This document shows, in pieces, positions 9,111 to 23,226 of a DNA stretch of 32,000 bases. A program made the position numbers and the translations under genes. This DNA comes from Nitrososphaera viennensis EN76 (lineage in GTDB: Archaea > Thermoproteota > Nitrososphaeria > Nitrososphaerales > Nitrososphaeraceae): positions 930,001 through 962,000 of the forward strand of contig NZ_CP007536.1 of NCBI RefSeq assembly GCF_000698785.1. Direction: 5' to 3'. Below the pieces are notes generated by a model. That model was not told the DNA's origin and did not search any database. It saw only the letters and a program-made list of their open reading frames with translations. Position 1 is the stretch's first letter. Each line of letters starts with the position of its first letter.

Positions 9111-9180
9111 AACGGCTGACAGTTGAAAATCTGCCGGCGGATAAGTGTTTGCGTGCGTGTTTATGCATCACTACCAATAT

Positions 9181-11190
9181 ATGCTTGAATTGGAAATTTA
9201 CAGCCCCTTGCTCTCAGCCACAGGAAGATTCCGCCTTGCAGACGTGTTTGCCCCCAGCGGCGACCAGCCGGAGGCCATAGAAAAGCTGGCAAAGAACGTG
9301 CAAAAGGGCGGGAGGCAGACACTCCTTGGCGTGACAGGAAGCGGCAAGACGTTTACCATTGCAAACGTCATTGCAAGGACAAACAAGAACACGCTTGTCA
9401 TATCGCACAACAAGACGCTTGCGGCGCAGCTGTACGCCGAGTTCAAGGAATTCTTTCCTGAAAACAACGTCGGATATTTCGTCAGCTTTTACGACTATTA
9501 CCAGCCGGAAAGCTATATCCCGCAGACAGACACGTACATCGAAAAGGACACGGAGGTCAACGAAAAGATTGAAAAGATGCGCCTTGAGGCTACCGCGATG
9601 CTCATGTCCGGCGAGCCCACCATCATAGTCGCGACCGTTTCGTGCATATACTCGCTTGGCTCACCAAAAGAGTGGGAGGGCAGCTCGATCGCCCTTGCCA
9701 GGGGAGACATGATCGACAGAAAGGCGATAATAAAGAGCCTCATAGACGCGCGCTATGAGCGAAACGACCTTGCGCTTGTCCCCGGCACGTTTCGCGCAAA
9801 GGGCGACACGATTGACATCATACCCGGCTACTCTGACGACGTTATCCGCGTATCCATGTTTGGCGACGAAATAGAGAGGATAAGCATCCACGACCACGTC
9901 AGCATGAAAAAGCTGCGCGAGGCAGGCGCTGTGAGGATATTTCCGGCGAAGCACTACATCACCGCAGAGGAGGCCCGCGAGCACGCAGTCAGGTCGATAA
10001 AGAGCGAACTGCAAGAGTGGCTGCCGCGGCTGCCCTCTGAACTTGAAAAGCAGCGCCTCGCCTCAAGGACGAAATATGATTTAGAGATGATAGAGGAGCT
10101 TGGCTACTGCTCTGGCATCGAGAACTATTCCCGCCACTTTGACGGGAGAAGGCCGGGCGAGCCGCCGTTCTGCCTTCTTGACTTTTTCGGCGACGACTTT
10201 CTCCTTGTAATAGACGAGTCGCACGTCACGATTCCGCAGCTGCACGGCATGCATAACGGCGACCACACGCGAAAAAAGTCGCTCGTGGACTTTGGCTTCC
10301 GGCTGCCAAGCGCGTTTGACAACCGCCCCCTGAAGTTTGAAGAGTTTGAGAAATACCTGAAAAACACGGTGTTTGTCTCTGCCACGCCGGGCCCGTACGA
10401 GCTAAAGACGAGCAGGCAAGTCGTTGAACAGCTAGTAAGGCCGACGGGGCTTGTGGACCCCAAGGTGGAGGTCAGGCCGACGAAAAACCAGATGGACGAC
10501 CTCATCCGTGAAATAAAAGCCAGGGCAAAGCGCGACCAGCGCACGCTCGTGACAACCCTCACAAAGAGGATGGCAGAGGACCTTGCAGAATTCCTGGCGA
10601 AAAACGAGGTGCGCGTGCGCTACCTCCACTCCGAGATAGAGGGGCTGGAGCGCACAGAATTGATAAGGCAACTGCGCCTCGGCGAATTTGACGTAATAGT
10701 GGGAATCAACCTGCTGAGGGAAGGCCTTGACATCCCGGAGGTCTCGCTCGTGGCGATACTTGACGCTGACAAGGAAGGCTTTTTGCGCAACACGACCAGC
10801 CTGATACAGACCTTTGGCAGGGCGGCCAGGAACCTTGACGGCATGGTGATACTGTATTCCGACAGGATGACAGAATCGATGGAGGAGGCTATCGAGGAGA
10901 CGGAGCGCAGGCGCAAGCGCCAGATTGACTACAACAGGCGCCACAAGATAACTCCAAAGACGATCGTCAAGCCGGTGCCAGAAAGCACGGCGCCCGGTGA
11001 AGTTGCCGAGGCGGCAGAGACAAAGTCGATGACCCGGCGCGACCTGCTAAAGCTTGCGATAGAGACAGAGGCGACAATGAAGAAATATGCCGAGGAGCTA
11101 GAGTTTGAGAAGGCGATAATGTTCCGGGAAAAGCTGGCAAGGATAAAAAGGGCGCTTGGCGACGTGACGCCTGTCACTGAGGTGTCCTGA
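9181..11190 (+). CDS. uvrB: excinuclease ABC subunit B
   Basis: [13 protein letters not shown], Walker [10 protein letters not shown], helicase motifs and the C-terminal UVR motif ([19 protein letters not shown]). The start is uncertain. TTG at 9208 gives a bacterial-like N-terminal length and sits about 25 nt after 'aatatatg'. The track start at 9145 is unlikely. Confidence 0.9.
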
Positions 11191-11194
11191 CAAT

Positions 11195-14053
11195 ATGGCG
11201 CACGACAAGATAATCATCAGGGGCGCAAGGCAGCACAACCTGAAGAACATAAGCGTCGAGATCCCAAAGAACAAGCTTGTCGTGATTACAGGGCTGTCAG
11301 GCTCGGGGAAATCGACGCTTGCGTTTGACACGATATACGCGGAGGGCCAGCGCAGGTACGTCGAATCATTGTCGGCGTACGCAAGGCAGTTTCTGGAGCT
11401 CATGGACAAGCCCGACGTCGACTCGATAGACGGGCTTTCGCCGGCGATATCCATCCAGCAAAAGACCACCAGCAAGAACCCGCGCTCGACAGTCGGCACC
11501 GTGACAGAGATCTACGACTATTTGCGCCTGCTTTTTGCAAGGATCGGCATCCCGCACTGCCCCAGGTGCGGCAGGCGCATTGCAAGCCAGTCCGTTGACT
11601 CGATCACAGAGTCGGTGCTAAAGACGGCGGAAGGCAAGAGCGTGATGGTGCTTGCGCCCGTCGTGCAGGCAAAAAAGGGCACGTACGAAAAGCTGTTCGA
11701 CGAGCTAAAGCATGAAGGCTACTCCCGCATAAGGCTTGACGGCGAGGTGACAAACCTCGAGGAAGAGGATGAAAAACCCAAGACGCCGAGGCTTGACAAG
11801 CAGAAAAAGCACACGATAGAGGTAATAGTCGACAGGCTAAAGCCGTCAGCTGAAGAAAAAAGCAGGCTCTTTGAATCAGTCCAGTCGGCGCTAAAAGTAG
11901 GAAGTGGCACTGTAGTCGTGTCGGTGGACGGCAAGGACACGATGTACTCGCAGAAAAACGCGTGCCCCCACTGCGAGATAAGCATAGGCGACATCGAGCC
12001 CCGCACGTTTTCGTTCAACTCGCCCTTTGGCGCCTGCCAGGGCTGCAACGGCCTTGGCATAAAAATCGAGTTTGACCCCGACCTGATAATACCAGACAGG
12101 CAAAAGAGCATCCTTGAGGGCGCAATAAGGCCGTGGACGGGGCACTTTGCCACTTTCCGCGCGTCGATGCTAAAGGACGTGGGCAGGAAATACGGCTTTG
12201 ACCTTGCCATGCCTGTTTCCAAGATGACGCAGAGGCAGCTCAACGTCATCCTGTACGGCACCGACGAGAACATACACTTCAAGTACGAGTCAAAGTATTC
12301 CGACAGCCGCTGGGAATACAACGGCACGTTTGAGGGCGTGATCCCAAACCTGGAGCGGACGTACAGGCAGACCGAGTCTGAGAGCAAGCGCGAAGACCTC
12401 ATGCAGTTTATGCGCGAGCGGCCCTGCGAGCGCTGCAGCGGCAGGCGCCTGCGGGAAGAGGCGCTTGCAGTCAAGATAGGAGACAGGTCGATAATGCAGG
12501 TCTGCGACCTGTCCATTGACGCCTGCTACAATTTCTTCCAGAAAATAGAGCTGTCAGAGACAGAGCGCTACATCGCCCGGACGATACTGAAGGAGATAAT
12601 GTCCAGGCTAGAGTTTTTGAGAAACGTCGGCCTCAACTACCTCACGCTCAACAGGATGAGCGCGACCCTCTCCGGCGGCGAATCGCAGAGGATCAGGCTT
12701 GCGACGCAGATAGGCTCTAACCTCACCGGCGTCCTGTACGTCCTTGACGAGCCGACAATCGGCCTGCACCAGCGCGATAATGCACGGCTGATTGATACGC
12801 TAAAGAAACTTCGCGACCTTGACAACACGCTTGTTGTAGTCGAGCACGACGAGGAGGTGATACGCAGTTCAGACTGGATAATAGACATCGGCCCGGGGGC
12901 AGGAATACACGGCGGCCAGATAGTCGCGTCAGGCACCCTTGCGGACATTGTTGCTAGTTGCGATTCCATCACCGGCGCGTTTCTGCGCGGCGAGCAGACT
13001 GCGGCGCACATGCACGAGCGCAAAAAGCCAGGCAAGTGGCTTGCCGTGCACGGCGCGCAGGAAAACAACCTGAAAAACATCGACGTCAGGTTCCCGCTTG
13101 GCTGCATGTCAGTAGTCACCGGCGTCTCTGGCTCTGGCAAGTCGACGCTTGTAAACGACATACTGTTCAAGGCCCTTGCAGGCCACTTTTTTGGCGCAAA
13201 AGACAGGCCCGGCAAGCACGGCAGCATTTCCGGCCTAGAGCACGCCGACAAGGTGATAGGAATCGACCAGTCGCCCATTGGCAGGACTCCCAGGTCCAAC
13301 GCCGCGACATACGTCAACGCCTTTACGCCGATACGCGAGCTGTTTGCCAGGACGCCGCACGCCCGGGAGATGGGCTACACCGCCGGCAGGTTCTCGTTCA
13401 ACGTGTCAGAAGGCAGGTGCGAGGCGTGCGAGGGCGGCGGCGTCAAAAAGATAGAGATGCAGTTCCTGCCCGACGTCTATGTCACCTGCGACGAGTGCAA
13501 GGGCAGGCGCTACAACTCGGAGACTCTATTGATAAAATACAAGGGCAAGACGATTTCTGACGTCCTTGACATGACGATAGAAGAGGCCCTGTCGTTCTTT
13601 TCAAACATACCTGCAATAACAAAAAAGCTGCAGACGCTAAACGACGTTGGCCTTGGCTACCTGCGCCTTGGCCAGCCGGCGACCACGATGTCCGGAGGAG
13701 AGGCTCAGAGGATCAAGCTTGCGGCAGAACTGTCAAGGCGCGACACGGGCAAGACAGTATACATCCTTGACGAGCCGACCACCGGCCTGCACTTTGCAGA
13801 CGTGAGCAAGCTGTTGCACGTGCTAAAGAGGCTGGTAGAACTTGGCAACACGGCCATCATAATCGAGCACAACCTAGACGTCATTGCCTCAGCAGACTGG
13901 ATAGTGGACCTCGGGCCCGAGGGAGGAGAAGGCGGAGGCACAATCGTGGCCGAAGGCACGCCCGAGCAGGTCAGCGAAAACGCCGCAAGCTACACCGGCC
14001 AGTACCTGAAGCAGAAACTTGCAATGGACCAGAGGCTGGTGCGGCGCAAGTAA
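11195..14053 (+). CDS. uvrA: excinuclease ABC subunit A
   Basis: [34 protein letters not shown], two ABC ATPase modules (LSGGE signature twice) and zinc-finger Cys clusters. 952 aa. It starts 4 nt after the uvrB stop. Confidence 0.95.
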
Positions 14054-14054
14054 A

Positions 14055-15662
14055 ATGACGATGATAACCACAGCAACCCTTCGGGAAAAGCGCATCCCAA
14101 AAAACCCGGGCGTCTACCTGATGAAGGACGCAAAGGGCCAGATAATCTATATCGGCAAGGCAAAAGACCTGAGCAAGCGCGTCACTTCTTACTTTACAAA
14201 GCGCGACCACAACGGCAAGACCGCAAGGCTCGTGCAGGAAATAGCAGACATTGAGTTCATGGTCACCGACAACGAGATCGAGGCTTTCCTGCTAGAGTCC
14301 AACCTGATAAAGCGCTACCGGCCGGTGTTCAACATCGAGCTCAAGGACAACAGCCGCTATTCGTACCTAAAGATAACCGACGAGCAGTTTCCCCGGCTCC
14401 TTGTCGCGCGCCGGAACAGAAACGGCGAGTTCTCCGGCCCAAGGGGGAGGATTTACGGCCCGTTTGTGCGCGGCAGCTCAAAATACCTGACGGCAGGGCT
14501 CCTGCGCAAGCTGTTCAAGGTCAGGGTGTGCACCCGCCTGCCAAAGGTGCCCTGCTTGCAGTATTTCATCAAGAACTGCGACGCGCCCTGCATCGCAAAC
14601 GTGACGCGGGAAAAATACATGGAAGGGATTGACGCGCTGCGCCAAATACTTGAAGGCAAGAGCAGCGTCGAGCGCTTTGCCCAGGAAATGGAGGTGGAGA
14701 TGAAGCGCGCGTCTGACATTGGCGATTACGAGCGCGCTAGGGAGATCCGCGACACGCTCTATCGCCTGAGCGACCTGCGCATAAGGCAAAAGATGGAGAA
14801 GGCGAACAAGAGGCCCCACGAAGAGTACGTCGGGATTGTGCGCGACAAGAAAAAGGGCGTGGCGCACGTCATGGCGCTCAAGCGCACCCACGGCGTCATA
14901 AGCGACCGGAGGAAGTTCGAGTTTGATATTGTGGCAGACAACTCGTTTTCGTCGTTTCTTCTGCAGTACTATTCATCGGCGCCGGCAATCCCGCAGATGA
15001 TATTCACCAGCGAAGAGCCTGAGGAAAAGGGCGTGCTCTTGATGTCGCTTGAAAAGCTTGCAGGGCACCCGGTAAAGATAGCGGCCGCCGGCAACTCTGG
15101 CGAGAGGCGCCAGCTTGTCGACCTGATTATGAAAAACCTGTCAATGTACGTCGAGCGGGGCTACGCGCCGGCGGTCGTGGAACTGAAACAGGCGCTTGCG
15201 CTTTCCGTCATGCCAGAGACAATCGACTGCTTTGACGTCTCTAACCTTGGCACGGACATTGCGGTTGGCTCTAGCGTGCGTTTTGTAAACGGCAGGCCGC
15301 ACAAGGGGGGCTACCGCAAGTTCAGGATAGAGACTGTTTCAGGCCAGAACGACTTTGCGATGATTGCCGAACTTGTAAGGCGCCGGTACAAGGACGCAAA
15401 GGACCTGCCCGACCTCGTGGTAATAGACGGCGGCAGGGGCCAGCTTGGGGCGGCCACCTCTGCGCTTGCCTCGACGGGCCTCATCGTGCCGTGCATTGGC
15501 CTTGCCAAGGAAAACGAGGAGATCCACGTGCAGGGAGCAAAGGAGCCAATAGTTCTGCCGAGGAGGAGCGCGGCGCTGAGAATGCTGCAGCATGCGCGTG
15601 ACGAGGCGCACAGGTTCGGCCTTGCGTACAACAAGAACCTGCGAAGGCTCACTCGACCTTGA
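14055..15662 (+). CDS. uvrC: excinuclease ABC subunit C, short form lacking the C-terminal (HhH)2 domain
   Basis: GIY-YIG (PGVYLMKDAKGQIIYIGKAKDLSKRVTSYF), a UVR motif (YERAREIRDTLYRL) and an endonuclease-V-like region ending in RDEAHRFGLAYNKNLRRLTRP-stop. ATG 14055 lies 1 nt after the uvrA stop. Confidence 0.9.
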   Translation: MTMITTATLREKRIPKNPGVYLMKDAKGQIIYIGKAKDLSKRVTSYFTKRDHNGKTARLVQEIADIEFMVTDNEIEAFLLESNLIKRYRPVFNIELKDNSRYSYLKITDEQFPRLLVARRNRNGEFSGPRGRIYGPFVRGSSKYLTAGLLRKLFKVRVCTRLPKVPCLQYFIKNCDAPCIANVTREKYMEGIDALRQILEGKSSVERFAQEMEVEMKRASDIGDYERAREIRDTLYRLSDLRIRQKMEKANKRPHEEYVGIVRDKKKGVAHVMALKRTHGVISDRRKFEFDIVADNSFSSFLLQYYSSAPAIPQMIFTSEEPEEKGVLLMSLEKLAGHPVKIAAAGNSGERRQLVDLIMKNLSMYVERGYAPAVVELKQALALSVMPETIDCFDVSNLGTDIAVGSSVRFVNGRPHKGGYRKFRIETVSGQNDFAMIAELVRRRYKDAKDLPDLVVIDGGRGQLGAATSALASTGLIVPCIGLAKENEEIHVQGAKEPIVLPRRSAALRMLQHARDEAHRFGLAYNKNLRRLTRP

Positions 15663-17713: not shown

Positions 17714-18195
17714 GCAAAGTTTTCCACGACGCGGATCACGCCCTGCATGAAAGGATGCGGGACGCAGTGATAGGCGTAATCTCCGGCTTTTGTAAACGTG
17801 AATGACCACGAGCCACCCCCGGCAATGAAGCCGTTAAAAGTCTCGTCAAGGTGCGCCTGTGAATCGAACTTGCCGCTTATGGCATCGACATAGCCATCAT
17901 CACTTGTCACGGTATGAAAATTAGGATCCTGGTTTATCCAGGTCACTTTATTTGACAGCCCGAGAACGGCGCGCACATCGTTTGGGACATAGTTCTTGGG
18001 GTTTGACTCCAAGCCTGCGTCCTTTACGATGGTGACCGGGATGGTTTGCTCTGGGTTTCGTACTTCTGGCGGGACATAAGGCGTCCTGTTGGCTTCTGGC
18101 ACGTACACGTACTGGTAGTATGCCAGGCTGACAGCCACGGCAACAATGAACGCAGTCATGCTTATTCCGGCAGCGTGGCTTCTTGCCGCTTGCAC
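17710..18195 (-). CDS. membrane-anchored type-1 (blue) copper protein, plastocyanin/amicyanin-like
   Basis: Cupredoxin copper ligands are FHTVTSDD (His) and YHCVPHPFMQG (Cys, His, Met). An N-terminal hydrophobic anchor reads MTAFIVAVAVSLAYY. The start is GTG 18195 (TATA-like box at -20 to -27) or ATG 18159. Confidence 0.85.
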   Translation of the reverse strand: MQAARSHAAGISMTAFIVAVAVSLAYYQYVYVPEANRTPYVPPEVRNPEQTIPVTIVKDAGLESNPKNYVPNDVRAVLGLSNKVTWINQDPNFHTVTSDDGYVDAISGKFDSQAHLDETFNGFIAGGGSWSFTFTKAGDYAYHCVPHPFMQGVIRVVENFA

Positions 18196-18214
18196 GCCGC
18201 AAGTATGGGCGGCG

Positions 18215-18222
18215 TTTTATTT
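18215..18222 (-). promoter_or_regulatory. TATA-like box for the blue-copper protein gene
   Basis: The minus strand reads 'ccaaataaaacg' about 20-27 nt upstream of GTG 18195. Confidence 0.3.
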
Positions 18223-18509
18223 GGAAATTAGTCCAAACGTTTGGACAAAGGTTGATATCGTTGCTGCGGAAATTTTTTCATGTAAAAGACGTATGGCCGC
18301 CGGACCTGTATCGTTGGCGCGGCTTGCGGCCAAAGCAGCGCCAAAAGAGAGGCTTGCCGAAAATTACTTACTTCTTTTTCGGTTTCGCCTTGGACTTCTT
18401 TGCCTTTTTAGCTGCCATTGTTCTAGTAGAGTGACAGCTTATTGATATTATTTTGGGTATCCGGAAATTTTTCAGACTCTTGTACGCCGGCGGCAAGAGC
18501 AGCAACGAC

Positions 18510-18516
18510 AAAAAAA
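18510..18516 (-). terminator. oligo-T terminator after the M23 peptidase gene
   Basis: The minus strand reads 'ccccgccggcttttttt', a short GC palindrome followed by T7, about 28 nt after the stop at 18544. Confidence 0.5.
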
Positions 18517-18543
18517 GCCGGCGGGGATTTTGCATTCGCCACT

Positions 18544-20169
18544 CTACGGGTACTGCGGCTTGCCTCCTTTCCACGAGATCGAGTACCTTGCGCAGGGCGT
18601 GCTTATCGGGTCGGTGAGGTTTTTCGGGTAGCACTCTGGAGGCCCATAGATTCCGTACGGGTCTATGAAGTACCATTCGTTGTCAGACGGGTCGCGCCGG
18701 GCAAAAAAGATGTGCAGGTGCGTGTTTGTACCGCCCTTCCATTCGTAGTCGACCTCATCGCTTGTGCATCCGCAGCCGCCGGGCGCCGTGTCTCCTGCCC
18801 ATCCAAGAAACGCGCCCCTGTCGACCTTCTTGCCAAGCATGCCCGTGTCTATCTTTTCCGACTCCTTGCCCCAGTACTTTTCCTGCGGCGTGCCGCTGCC
18901 GTCTTTTTTGCAGCCGGTGTCGTTAAGGTATTTCTTGAATTGCGAAAGCCGCGGCTCCGATAGGTTGGGCACGGTCTGGGCCCAGGACGCCTTGCAGTCT
19001 GCACTCGGGCCGTTTGCAAGGTGCATGTAGACGGTACGAAAAGCATCCTTTACGCCGCCTGCGTCGTGGCTCACGACAATAGTGTTGCCTGACCACCAAT
19101 CCCACCCTATGTGGACTACAGTCCCGGAGGCCGCTGCGACTACCCCGAATTTCTTGCCGTCGTTGCGGTAATAGTCAATGGCGTGGTGCCACGAGCCGGG
19201 CTTGTAAAGCCACGTCCCGCCCCTTACCACCTTTTTGTCTGTAAACGGAAGAGTAAAGGGAGCGCCGTCAAAATAAAGCGCGGAGAGCCTTGCGTACCTC
19301 CTGTCCCCTTGAAGGGTAACCGGCCAGCGGTAATACACCACTTCTCCTGCTCCAGGATTTCCACAGGTGTTTGGTAGCCCGGGGCAGTGGATCTTGGTTC
19401 TTGTAATGCCATAGTTGTACGAGCCTTCAGGCATCACGACCTGGTTCATGCACTTGCCGTCGCATGCGCTGTCGCTCAGGGCCATTCTTACGAGACGCAG
19501 TCCCTTGTCGAAATATTCCTTGTCGCGGCTTACGAACGCCTCGGTGTCGTATCCCGACACCCACCACTGGGCGCCGGTGCCGGGGCGCCATACGGCAGAG
19601 TATTTGCCATTGGTTATGTTCAGATCAGTCAGGCGCAACCCCTTGTCGAAATAGCCCTTGTCCAGCGCCTTGAACTCGGAAAAAGTCTTTCCAGAAGTCC
19701 ACCATTGCGCTCCGGTGCCGGGGCGCCAGACGCCGGCGTACTTGCCGTCACGCACTTCAAGGTCGACCAGACGGAGGCCGTCGTCGAAATATTTCTTGTC
19801 TATTGCTTTGAACTCAGAGTAGGTCTTGCCGGATGTCCACCACTGGGCGCCGGTACCTGGCCTCCACACTCCGGCGTACTTGCCGTTGTATATGTGCAAG
19901 TTTGTAAGGCGCAGTCCATCGTCAAAGTATCCCTTGTCTATTGCCTTGAATTCCGCGTACGTCTTGCCATACACCCACCACTGGGCGCCGGTGCCGGGGC
20001 GCCATATGCCTGCAAATTTGCCGTTGTGTATTTCGAGGTCTACAAGCCGCAGGCCTTTGTTGAAATAGTCCTTGTCTATCTTTTTGAAATCGGCGTAGCT
20101 TTTTCCCGAGACCCACCACTGGGCGCCGGTACCTGGCCTCCATGCTGCAGCATAAATTGTCCCGGCCAC
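18544..20169 (-). CDS. M23 (LytM/lysostaphin-type) zinc metallopeptidase with five N-terminal 46-aa Trp-rich tandem repeats
   Basis: M23 signatures are WHHAIDY (HxxxD), NTIVVSHDAGG...TVYMHL and GGTNTHLHIFF (HxH), followed by DPYG. The N-terminus has five units beginning WRPGTGAQWW. GTG is the only start in frame, and there is an in-frame stop 17 codons upstream. Confidence 0.85.
   Translation of the reverse strand: MAGTIYAAAWRPGTGAQWWVSGKSYADFKKIDKDYFNKGLRLVDLEIHNGKFAGIWRPGTGAQWWVYGKTYAEFKAIDKGYFDDGLRLTNLHIYNGKYAGVWRPGTGAQWWTSGKTYSEFKAIDKKYFDDGLRLVDLEVRDGKYAGVWRPGTGAQWWTSGKTFSEFKALDKGYFDKGLRLTDLNITNGKYSAVWRPGTGAQWWVSGYDTEAFVSRDKEYFDKGLRLVRMALSDSACDGKCMNQVVMPEGSYNYGITRTKIHCPGLPNTCGNPGAGEVVYYRWPVTLQGDRRYARLSALYFDGAPFTLPFTDKKVVRGGTWLYKPGSWHHAIDYYRNDGKKFGVVAAASGTVVHIGWDWWSGNTIVVSHDAGGVKDAFRTVYMHLANGPSADCKASWAQTVPNLSEPRLSQFKKYLNDTGCKKDGSGTPQEKYWGKESEKIDTGMLGKKVDRGAFLGWAGDTAPGGCGCTSDEVDYEWKGGTNTHLHIFFARRDPSDNEWYFIDPYGIYGPPECYPKNLTDPISTPCARYSISWKGGKPQYP
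19453..20142 (-). repeat. intragenic tandem repeat, 5 x 138 nt (5 x 46 aa)
   Basis: The 'ccaccactgggcgccggt...' block recurs at 19561, 19699, 19837, 19975 and 20113, an exact 138-nt period. The peptide consensus is WRPGTGAQWWxSGKTYxEFKAIDKxYFDxGLRLxDLxIxNGKYAGV. Confidence 0.9.
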
Positions 20170-20460
20170 TACGACTCGCCCCTTTGCCTCAAGGTCGAAG
20201 CAACTGTTATCCGATGCGCGCTAGTTACGGCATTTTTATGGAATATATCCATTAGATGCCACTCATTCATGATTTTTCTGTTTAAAGACAATACCTAGCA
20301 CATAGAAATTAGCTATTTAAAGAAAGTGCAATTTCATTCTATCAGGTAGCAGTCGAAAAGCGTGCGTATGTGTAGAAATTTTAACTGAAACAGAAAAAAA
20401 ATGCATAAAATATCAAGCAGGTCTGTGCCGCATGCCAGGTCTACCTTTCTAAAATTTTTT

Positions 20461-22914: not shown

Positions 22915-23042
22915 ATCGCAGTACCAAGATAGGCACACACAGTTTTGGACGGTTTTGGCGGCATTCAACGGTTACTGTGGCGATTGTAGTCCTCCATGAT
23001 ATTGAAGAGATTTATTCTGAAAAAGTAAGTGGGGCCGAAGGG

Positions 23043-23072
23043 ATTTGTCCTGGCGCGGGATTAACCGCAGCC
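23043..23072 (-). other. tRNA-Trp intron 2 (non-canonical, in the T-loop, about 30 nt)
   Basis: Removing 30 nt restores a perfect AAGGG-UUCAAAU-CCCUU T arm. The insert folds as GGC(U)GCGG-UUAAUC-CCGCGCC. The junction is ambiguous by up to 5 nt because 'caaat' flanks both sides. Confidence 0.65.
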
Positions 23073-23095
23073 ATTTGAACCCTTGACCCACGGGT

Positions 23096-23128
23096 TTCTT
23101 TCTCTAACTAGCCCATTTGTTGTTAGAT
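23096..23128 (-). other. tRNA-Trp intron 1 (canonical 37/38 position, about 33 nt)
   Basis: The insert lies between anticodon-loop G37 and A38. Internal helix is UCUAAC/GUUAGA. The exact 3' junction is ambiguous within an A run. Confidence 0.7.
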
Positions 23129-23226
23129 CTGGAGCCCGTTGCGATGCCTGGCTTCGCTACGACCCCACCAAGTGGCACCGTGTGTTTTTGATAGCAGAAA
23201 GATGTCTGTATAAGTCTTATCTTTCT

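Follow-up and report, generated by a model that had tools for sequence, protein, structure and literature searches.

Archaea are known to acquire cell wall hydrolases from bacteria, including peptidases of the M23 family, and horizontally acquired archaeal M23 peptidoglycan hydrolases (PGHs), one of which kills a bacterium, were published in 2025 (PMC12352652). Nitrososphaerota are enveloped by surface layers (S-layers; PMC12153357). In the fungal polyglycine hydrolases, the N-terminal domain of Fvan-cmp consists of five 44-residue structural repeats of strand-helix-strand-strand (EHEE) topology arranged in a barrel-like ring, and this fold was called novel, of unknown function and 'found across all kingdoms' (PMC9912923). 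Here, we describe a gene of the archaeon Nitrososphaera viennensis EN76 in which a ring of this kind precedes an M23 domain. The gene lies in a stretch of 32,000 nucleotides (contig NZ_CP007536.1 of assembly GCF_000698785.1, positions 930,001 to 962,000 of the forward strand), which is referred to as the window and whose numbering is used throughout. The reading developed below, which we consider about evenly balanced between right and wrong, is that the gene encodes an active M23 zinc metallopeptidase of an uncharacterised soil-bacterial subfamily, that it was acquired horizontally and kept under selection, and that its substrate is non-self and most likely bacterial peptidoglycan.

Gene and domain architecture

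The list of open reading frames (ORFs) of the window holds a frame of 541 codons plus stop at 18544..20169 on the minus strand, beginning with GTG, and its product is 100% identical to AIC15353.1 / WP_075054377.1 of N. viennensis, named "M23 family metallopeptidase" in RefSeq. The motif WRPGTGAQWW recurs at residues 10, 56, 102, 148 and 194 with an exact period of 46 residues, and Tandem Repeats Finder (TRF) reports periods of 138 (2.7 copies) and 276 (2.1 copies) at 19552-20142. Protein identity is 65-78% among repeats 1 to 4 and 50-54% between repeat 5 and the others. Further along the protein, HHAID begins at residue 328, YMHL at 381 and HLH at 484, and ten cysteines are found at 236, 240, 262, 269, 392, 420, 466, 468, 513 and 526. 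The five tandem 46-residue units at residues 10-239, the ten cysteines and the M23 motifs that a preliminary description had read from the letters are thus all borne out by the repeat period and the translation; the insert that it placed between the second and third motifs is present as well, but adds about 68 residues rather than about 50, as the distance from H383 to H484 is 101 residues here and 33 in a canonical M23 protein (P0140). The features of the gene, with the evidence for each, are as follows:

18544..20169 (-), complete gene, 541 codons plus stop (ORF list; 100% identity to a named protein)
19453..20142 (-), five tandem 46-residue BTRD1 repeats, residues 10-239 (repeat register, Pfam, structure model, Foldseek)
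20005-20142 (-), repeat 1
19867-20004 (-), repeat 2
19729-19866 (-), repeat 3
19591-19728 (-), repeat 4
19453-19590 (-), repeat 5
19195..19464 (-), Cys-rich linker and N-terminal extension of the catalytic part, residues 236-325 (alignment, Cys co-occurrence)
19012..19194 (-), M23 core, first half, residues 326-386 (residues 328-386 aligned by Pfam)
19174-19188 (-), codons of the HxxxD motif (H328, D332)
19021-19023 (-), codon of the catalytic H383
18736..19011 (-), mostly helical insert peculiar to the family, residues 387-478 (separating MHL from HLH)
18547..18735 (-), M23 core, second half, and C-terminal tail, residues 479-541, C513 and C526 included (alignment)
18712-18720 (-), codons of the HxH motif (H484, H486)
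20313..20342 (-), block of about 30 nt upstream of the gene, common to the ortholog L084 (upstream alignment)

Two further observations concern the number of repeats. The array has a super-period of two units (the TRF period of 276), and in P0009, the homolog from a cyanobacterium, repeat 3 is a near copy of repeat 1, and repeat 4 of repeat 2; the ring may have grown by duplication of a two-repeat unit. In a second, independent N. viennensis assembly from short reads (L085; Logan SRR27002167), which has the same gene order and is 98.8-100% identical in nucleotides, the copy of the gene (L085:2998-4209) has only two repeats, encodes 403 residues and is shorter by exactly 3 x 138 nt, corresponding to 19591-20004 of the window (repeats 2-4). 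This form is either an assembly collapse of the tandem repeat or a genuine recombinational variant in repeat number.

The N-terminal ring domain

The repeats match the Pfam family BTRD1 (PF17660, 'Polyglycine hydrolase-like, structural repeat') with 39.6 bits (cutoff 23) and E=4.8e-10. An AlphaFold2 (AF2) model built from a 30-sequence alignment had a mean predicted local distance difference test (pLDDT) score of 92.2 and a predicted template modelling (pTM) score of 0.86, and DSSP assigned to it five EHEE units spanning residues 4-233 (pLDDT 85-97), each containing a 13-residue helix (residues 25-37, 71-83, 117-129, 163-175 and 209-221). When the model was compared with the PDB using Foldseek, its N-terminal part matched Fvan-cmp (7tpu_A) over 254 columns with a probability of 1.00 and E=1.2e-3. 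The predicted domain is a five-repeat alpha/beta ring, as in Fvan-cmp. A likeness to the 'bacterial tandem repeat' of polyglycine hydrolases had been noted in the preliminary description, and the Pfam match, the Foldseek match to 7tpu_A and the published repeat geometry (PMC9912923) agree with it. The same description had raised the idea of a five-bladed propeller and proposed structure prediction of the N-terminal 240 residues; in the AF2 model, this part is predicted to form an EHEE alpha/beta barrel-like ring instead. A five-bladed beta-propeller lectin of the tachylectin-2 type was accordingly ruled out, as each repeat holds a 13-residue helix, and no propeller was found among the Foldseek PDB matches of the model.

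Homologs of the ring were sought with residues 1-233. Rings bearing the signature VWRPGxGAQWW were found on their own in leaderless proteins about 240 residues long (P0151 of Aliidongia, P0155 of Tepidisphaeraceae, and P0179), joined to a canonical short M23 domain (P0140; Pfam M23 E=2.8e-21), and placed between a signal peptide and a small Cys-rich C-terminal domain (P0143 and P0149). Because the ring occurs alone, fused to M23 and fused to a Cys-rich domain, and has a beta-lactamase-like partner in the fungal polyglycine hydrolases, these arrangements mark it as a portable accessory module. The data also suggest that the ring may offer five Trp-rich faces, all equivalent, for binding. A recent amplification of repeats is probable in P0140, three successive repeats of which are almost the same.

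The M23 catalytic domain

The C-terminal part matches Pfam Peptidase_M23 (PF01551) with 29.9 bits (cutoff 28.7) and E=6.4e-7, and only profile positions 3-54 of 96 are aligned because of the insert. The HxxxD motif (H328-H-A-I-D332), H383 and the HxH motif (H484-L-H486) are all present, and H328, D332, H383, H484 and H486 are invariant in 30/30 and 106/106 relatives in the respective alignments. Similarity to SpoIIQ and Pgp3 was detected in NCBIfam, in both cases below threshold, and the best match in a sequence search of the PDB was SpoIIQ with E=0.38, with none better. Foldseek matched the C-terminal part of the model to ShyA (E=2.2e-6), SpoIIQ, NMB0315, Csd3, StM23, LytU and EnvC-LytM with a probability of 1.00, and the target template modelling (TM) scores were 0.56-0.68 for SpoIIQ, StM23, LytU and EnvC-LytM. 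Matches in BFVD were phage M23 lysins and were limited to the M23 core. In the AF2 model, the catalytic part is mainly beta with a helical insertion, and the Cys-rich extension is formed of beta-strands (pLDDT 80-95). Taken together, the Pfam match above threshold, the intact ligands and catalytic residues and the M23 fold found by Foldseek confirm the M23 identity assigned earlier, and in the profile hidden Markov model searches proposed at that time both BTRD1 and M23 scored above their cutoffs, the latter by a small margin, with the zinc ligands kept on alignment. By every feature testable from sequence and model the protein belongs to the M23 and BTRD1 families, and it is predicted to have zinc-dependent activity.

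Two other identities were considered and ruled out. A degenerate LytM factor of the EnvC/NlpD/SpoIIQ type is incompatible with zinc ligands that are all present and invariant, and the protein is not a polyglycine hydrolase, as its C-terminal domain is M23 and only the N-terminal domain is held in common.

The insert holds C392, C420 and C466-G-C468 together with the invariant residues W396, L415, W433 and G434, and C236-x3-C240 in the Cys-rich extension is invariant in the 30-sequence alignment. Across the 106-sequence alignment, cysteines 262 and 269 co-occur with a phi coefficient of 0.94, as do 466 and 468 with a phi of 0.91; C392 and an alternative cysteine at 460 are mutually exclusive (phi -0.82), and C236, C240, C420, C513 and C526 are nearly invariant across the family. 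When 1.84 billion cluster representatives were scanned with HMMER for the long-insert catalytic domain, 209 proteins were found at E<=0.001 and 56 at E<=1e-30, and residues 68-280 of the catalytic-domain query still align in the more distant relatives. Judged by these searches, the long-insert catalytic domain forms a small, divergent group.

Distribution and bacterial origin

A word-indexed search returned 401 homologs, and the pattern is not due to chance. Full-length relatives with 55-65% identity were found in Hapalosiphon, Gaiellaceae, Hydrocarboniphaga, Bryobacteraceae, Gemmatimonadaceae and the fungus Geoglossum, and the nearest relative with a taxonomic name belongs to a Pyrinomonadaceae cluster (65% identity). 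The fungal homolog (P0119) bears a signal peptide. To survey carriers, one genome per GTDB species was scanned with the peptide patterns GWDxWSGNT, which varies little or not at all across the 30 aligned sequences, and [FY]RTIYMHL, which N. viennensis matches inexactly (FRTVYMHL). The scan found 100 carrier genomes, and taxonomy was read from the best 80 of these. The 80 listed carriers are almost all soil or sediment bacteria and include Acidobacteriota (among them Thermoanaerobaculia), Actinomycetota, Bacteroidota, Fibrobacterota, Myxococcota, Verrucomicrobiota, Gemmatimonadota, Methylomirabilota and Proteobacteria; at least 95 of the approximately 100 carrier species, from ten or more phyla, are bacterial. 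No other representative of the Nitrososphaeraceae is among the 80 listed carriers, and N. viennensis itself was likewise not returned by the scan, presumably owing to masking.

Besides N. viennensis, two carriers among those listed are labelled archaeal. The first (L010:5965-7683) is a leaderless member, 51% identical to the window protein, on a 232-kb contig of a Methanosarcinales metagenome-assembled genome (MAG). This contig is truly archaeal because an archaeosine tRNA-guanine transglycosylase (DUF5591+PUA+TGT) and NFACT flank the gene, and in the tree described below its protein groups with that of the cyanobacterium Hapalosiphon, which looks like a second, independent transfer into archaea. 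The other (L032:1938-4676) is on a 4.8-kb contig with a G+C fraction (GC) of 0.378 that owes its Nitrosopumilaceae label to MAG binning only; its protein of 912 residues is 42% identical and combines a signal peptide, thrombospondin type-3 Ca-binding repeats, a BTRD1 ring and M23.

A neighbour-joining tree of the catalytic part was built from 75 sequences and 288 columns; it is distance-based and carries no support values. In this tree, N. viennensis pairs with an ortholog on a metagenomic contig (L084), and the pair nests inside a bacterial clade. The three archaeal-labelled occurrences (N. viennensis with L084, L010 and L032) are scattered, each among bacteria, and the tree as a whole departs from taxonomy. 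On the metagenomic contigs that hold the nearest relatives, the neighbouring genes are of bacterial type (TetR, MacB/FtsX and MFS). The gene has a GC of 0.57 and the window one of 0.553, and it is because these values are close that composition gives no sign of a recent transfer. Horizontal acquisition from bacteria by the Nitrososphaera lineage, as had been suggested, is well supported because the carriers and neighbouring genes are bacterial and the archaeal pair is nested among bacteria in the tree; the phylogeny of the M23 domain that the preliminary description called for thus places the pair inside a bacterial clade rather than in a vertical archaeal family. The family appears to move between lineages often. 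As for the rarity that was claimed for the repeat-M23 combination in archaea, BTRD1 joined to M23 turns out to be widespread in soil bacteria and annotated automatically, and what stands is that the architecture itself is uncharacterised.

The neighbourhoods of 85 loci (+/-4 kb) were compared by all-vs-all BLAST, and no convincing conserved neighbours were found. The top neighbour clusters were rejected as antisense shadow ORFs of the M23 gene itself, and histidine kinases and response regulators (12/85 loci), the one genuine family that recurred, were rejected as partners because they are generic and were judged to occur at about chance level for soil bacteria. PADLOC gave no defence match and PHROGs gave only meaningless short matches; these searches show no phage or defence link.

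Selection and transcription

The metagenomic ortholog L084, on a 5-kb contig with a GC of 0.506, encodes a protein 84% identical to that of N. viennensis (78.6% in DNA); the genes around it differ from those in the window and include one for an HTH_45 regulator. An archaeal origin of this contig is probable from its GC, the HTH_45 gene, its place as sister to N. viennensis in the tree and the TATA-like block described next. By the Nei-Gojobori method, the ratio of nonsynonymous to synonymous divergence (dN/dS) between the two genes is 0.063 (dN 0.098; dS ~1.6, near saturation), and the M23 gene is under purifying selection. The upstream block common to both genes contains TTTAAATAG (20313-20321), about 144 nt before the GTG start; it is found once in the window against 0.10 expected, and from its sequence it looks like an archaeal TATA-type promoter element. 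A 33-codon upstream ORF (MNEWHLMDIF...; 20167-20269, minus strand), whose TAG overlaps the GTG start by one base (GTAGTG), was rejected as a feature and is probably fortuitous, since no conserved counterpart precedes the L084 ortholog.

Expression was read from Dataset S1 of PMC7785015, in which NVIE_011220 is annotated as 'protein of unknown function'. This locus tag was given to the M23 gene by calibrating the ratio of baseMean to reads per kilobase per million mapped reads (RPKM) against gene length with uvrA, uvrB, uvrC, ald and two cupredoxin genes (slope 0.00198 per nt); the length so obtained is 1,665 nt, and the actual length is 1,626 nt. NVIE_011220 is transcribed at an RPKM of ~16 under copper-replete and ~29 under copper-limited conditions (log2 fold change +1.01, adjusted P 3.5e-10; PMC7785015, Dataset S1). 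No paper naming the protein by accession was found, and it was not found in the portions of the supplements of glycoproteomics and carbon-limitation papers that were covered.

Substrate, export and alternative explanations

In the predicted anatomy of the protein, the ring occupies residues 1-235 and the Cys-rich extension residues 236-325, and the M23 core (326-541) is split by the helical insert of about 68 residues. By analogy with LytM and lysostaphin, whose ligand and catalytic histidine roles we take to apply here, H328, D332 and H486 would bind Zn2+, and H383 and H484 would assist the attacking water. The ring, with its five near-identical Trp-rich faces, would serve as a multivalent targeting or binding module, and five probable disulfides would stabilise the protein outside the cytoplasm. 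Since the host lacks murein and is covered by an S-layer, the substrate would be non-self, and the likeliest candidates would be the peptide stems or cross-bridges of bacterial peptidoglycan, cleaved for competition or for nutrient release. Peptidoglycan is the best-supported guess because all characterised M23 proteins of related structure act on or bind walls, many relatives are secreted and an antibacterial archaeal M23 has been demonstrated.

Several observations weigh against this reading. The catalytic domain is very far from all characterised M23 enzymes (a Pfam margin of 1.2 bits, a best PDB match of E=0.38 and 209 representatives), and because of this distance substrate specificity is not transferable by homology. 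For the ring, no ligand is known (PMC9912923), and it is not counted among the recognised domains that bind peptidoglycan. Expression of NVIE_011220 is low, with uvrA at an RPKM of ~250 for comparison. Among the 85 loci, no immunity, export or partner gene is conserved near the M23 gene. Judged by length and hydrophobicity, the window protein has no signal peptide: the GTG start precedes repeat 1 by 9 residues and is itself preceded, 17 codons earlier, by an in-frame stop, and approximately 30 of the 85 loci are likewise leaderless, with 11 or fewer residues before the domain. Classical export is thus not indicated, and an intracellular role, although unlikely, would agree with this.

The missing leader is not a sequencing error, because the second assembly L085 is 100% identical to the window across the start region, and the first strand of the repeats begins at about residue 4. 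Leaderless members include N. viennensis, L084, the Methanosarcinales copy, Acidobacteriaceae, Verrucomicrobiae, Microbacterium, Roseiarcus and Gemmatimonadaceae; at approximately 50 of the 85 loci, the protein begins with a typical Sec leader whose last residues, ...AQ or ...AE, directly precede repeat 1, and Bacteroidota members also end in the C-terminal sorting domain of the type IX secretion system (T9SS; PF18962). The paired-Cys pattern is kept in the leaderless members, and the paired gain and loss of cysteines, which is the behaviour of disulfides, argues that these members probably also act in an oxidising compartment. Because the protein lacks a signal peptide, its extracellular location is something that we infer, and so is the 'extracellular hydrolase' of the preliminary description. 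The split between Sec-leader and leaderless members with the same Cys pattern offers a concrete case for the study of non-classical export.

A possible but somewhat unlikely alternative is that the protein is a secreted protease of proteins, with docking of the ring on a partner, either protein or glycan, and cleavage of a Gly-rich linker by the M23 domain. Polyglycine hydrolases acting on plant chitinases and LasA acting on elastin provide the model for such an enzyme. The same ring is found in polyglycine hydrolases, the substrate of which is a protein linker (PMC9912923), the fungal homolog P0119 has a signal peptide, the ring is not a known peptidoglycan-binding domain, and the authors of PMC12352652 warn that such catalytic domains can cut bonds outside peptidoglycan. 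However, the structurally closest characterised M23 domains all act on, or bind to, cell walls, neither a candidate protein substrate nor a conserved partner gene was found at the 85 loci, and the independent fusion of the ring to two types of M23 fits a common wall-type target equally well. It is unlikely that the protein is not exported at all and acts inside the cell or after lysis, with its cysteines binding metal or reduced. This would account for the lack of a signal peptide in the window protein and in some 30 relatives from many phyla, diderm bacteria included, for the leaderless stand-alone rings (P0151, P0155 and P0179) and for the fact that no export gene was found nearby; however, we know of no cytoplasmic substrate of an M23 enzyme, and the leaderless members share their paired-Cys pattern with Sec- or T9SS-secreted relatives. 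Moreover, signal peptides are recognised in only 32% of archaeal PGH homologs, and the other 68% lack one, yet extracellular action has been proposed or shown for them (PMC12352652).

That the gene is a decaying or neutral passenger left from the transfer would agree with its low transcript level (RPKM 16-29 against ~250 for uvrA) and patchy distribution, but is very improbable because of the dN/dS of 0.063 against L084, the conserved upstream element, transcription that shifts significantly under copper limitation and the invariant active site, with the reading frame intact and all catalytic residues kept. Still less credible, to the point of being hardly worth entertaining, is vertical inheritance of the family within archaea, with bacteria as the recipients: three archaeal-labelled occurrences exist, but these are not monophyletic and are scattered, each among bacteria, the great majority of carrier species (at least 95 of ~100, in ten or more phyla) are bacterial, and the 80 listed carriers include no other Nitrososphaeraceae.

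A further and rather doubtful proposal is that ammonia-oxidising archaea attack neighbouring soil bacteria with this leaderless, disulfide-patterned enzyme, that it is exported without a signal peptide (in vesicles, through an exporter not yet recognised or when part of the population lyses), and that the five-fold Trp-rich ring is a hitherto unrecognised module that binds walls or Gly-rich peptides. If this were true, the ring as a binder of walls or Gly-rich peptides would also explain its presence in the fungal polyglycine hydrolases.

Genomic surroundings

The window also holds genes for asparagine synthase, UvrB, UvrA, UvrC, alanine dehydrogenase, two cupredoxins, a winged helix-turn-helix regulator and a CofH-like protein. 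The uvrB-uvrA-uvrC cluster is complete and of bacterial type (9145-15662, plus strand), with an RPKM of ~190-260 per gene in PMC7785015. The M23 gene lies between two genes of the plastocyanin/cupredoxin type, NVIE_011200 (17710-18195, minus strand) and NVIE_011230 (20494-21183, minus strand), both of which are weakly expressed, and the M23 transcript doubles under copper limitation; the cupredoxin flanks and the copper response reflect either co-regulation or coincidence. The order of locus tags puts NVIE_011210 at 18196-18543 of the window, flanked by the M23 gene and the blue-copper gene NVIE_011200. It is annotated as a 'protein of unknown function', its length is put at ~259 nt by the calibration, and its RPKM of 373-565 is at least 13x that of the M23 gene (PMC7785015). 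Candidates for it are a very basic 83-residue ORF (18183..18434, plus strand), a small RNA or a 3' untranslated region, and a terminator-like hairpin is present at 18194-18215 (plus strand). At 23030-23166 (minus strand), a 137-nt match to the full-length Rfam tRNA model (39.3 bits) was missed by ARAGORN, and this is consistent with an intron-containing archaeal tRNA.

Comparison with known systems

Among archaeal enzymes, the closest parallels are Woldo of Halogranum salarium and the other M23 PGHs that archaea gained by transfer (PMC12352652), which are similarly M23 enzymes of murein-free archaea with bacterial ancestry, a patchy distribution and a build of catalytic and accessory parts. 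Woldo differs in having two PG_binding_1 domains C-terminal to M23, a Tat signal peptide and demonstrated killing, whereas the window protein has an N-terminal BTRD1 ring, an insert of ~68 residues, a Cys-rich extension and no signal peptide. Modular archaeal PGHs were defined as those combining a peptidoglycan-cleaving domain with a recognised wall-binding Pfam domain (PMC12352652), and the window protein, with BTRD1 as its sole accessory domain, falls outside this definition; in the portions of the tables of that paper that were covered, neither PF17660/BTRD1 nor 'viennensis' was found.

With the secreted bacteriolytic enzymes lysostaphin, zoocin A, LasA, LytM, StM23 (9gy1) and LytU (5kqb), the window protein shares the HxxxD and HxH motifs and the extra catalytic histidine, and with the bacteriolytic StM23 and LytU it shares the beta-sheet core fold (Foldseek probability 1.00, target TM 0.56-0.68). 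It differs from the bacteriolytic M23 enzymes in its marginal sequence similarity, in the catalytic-histidine spacing of 101 versus ~33 and in its ten cysteines, and it carries a BTRD1 ring where these enzymes carry SH3b, LysM or TRD targeting domains. EnvC, NlpD and SpoIIQ have the same fold, and SpoIIQ is the best sequence match in NCBIfam and the PDB; however, these proteins have lost zinc ligands and serve as activators or scaffolds in the wall metabolism of their own cells, whereas the window protein keeps every ligand and belongs to a host that lacks murein. The fungal polyglycine hydrolases (Fvan-cmp 7tpu, Bz-cmp and Es-cmp) are alike in that a hydrolase domain comes after an N-terminal ring of five EHEE repeats; this domain is a beta-lactamase-like serine hydrolase in their case and M23 here, and their repeats are little alike in sequence (PMC9912923), in contrast to the 65-78% identity among repeats 1 to 4 of the window protein.

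That archaea acquire bacterial wall hydrolases is therefore not new; what is new is the combination of a BTRD1 ring, a Cys-rich extension, a long-insert M23 domain and, in this clade, no leader, a combination that is experimentally uncharacterised. With its near-identical repeats, two independent M23 fusions and stand-alone forms, the subfamily is tractable for finding the ligand of the ring. Should the enzyme prove active on bacterial walls, N. viennensis, a model nitrifier of soils that has so far been seen as a slow-growing chemolithoautotroph, could antagonise or eat bacteria, and the 2025 finding of bacteria-killing archaeal peptidoglycan hydrolases would extend to Nitrososphaerota.

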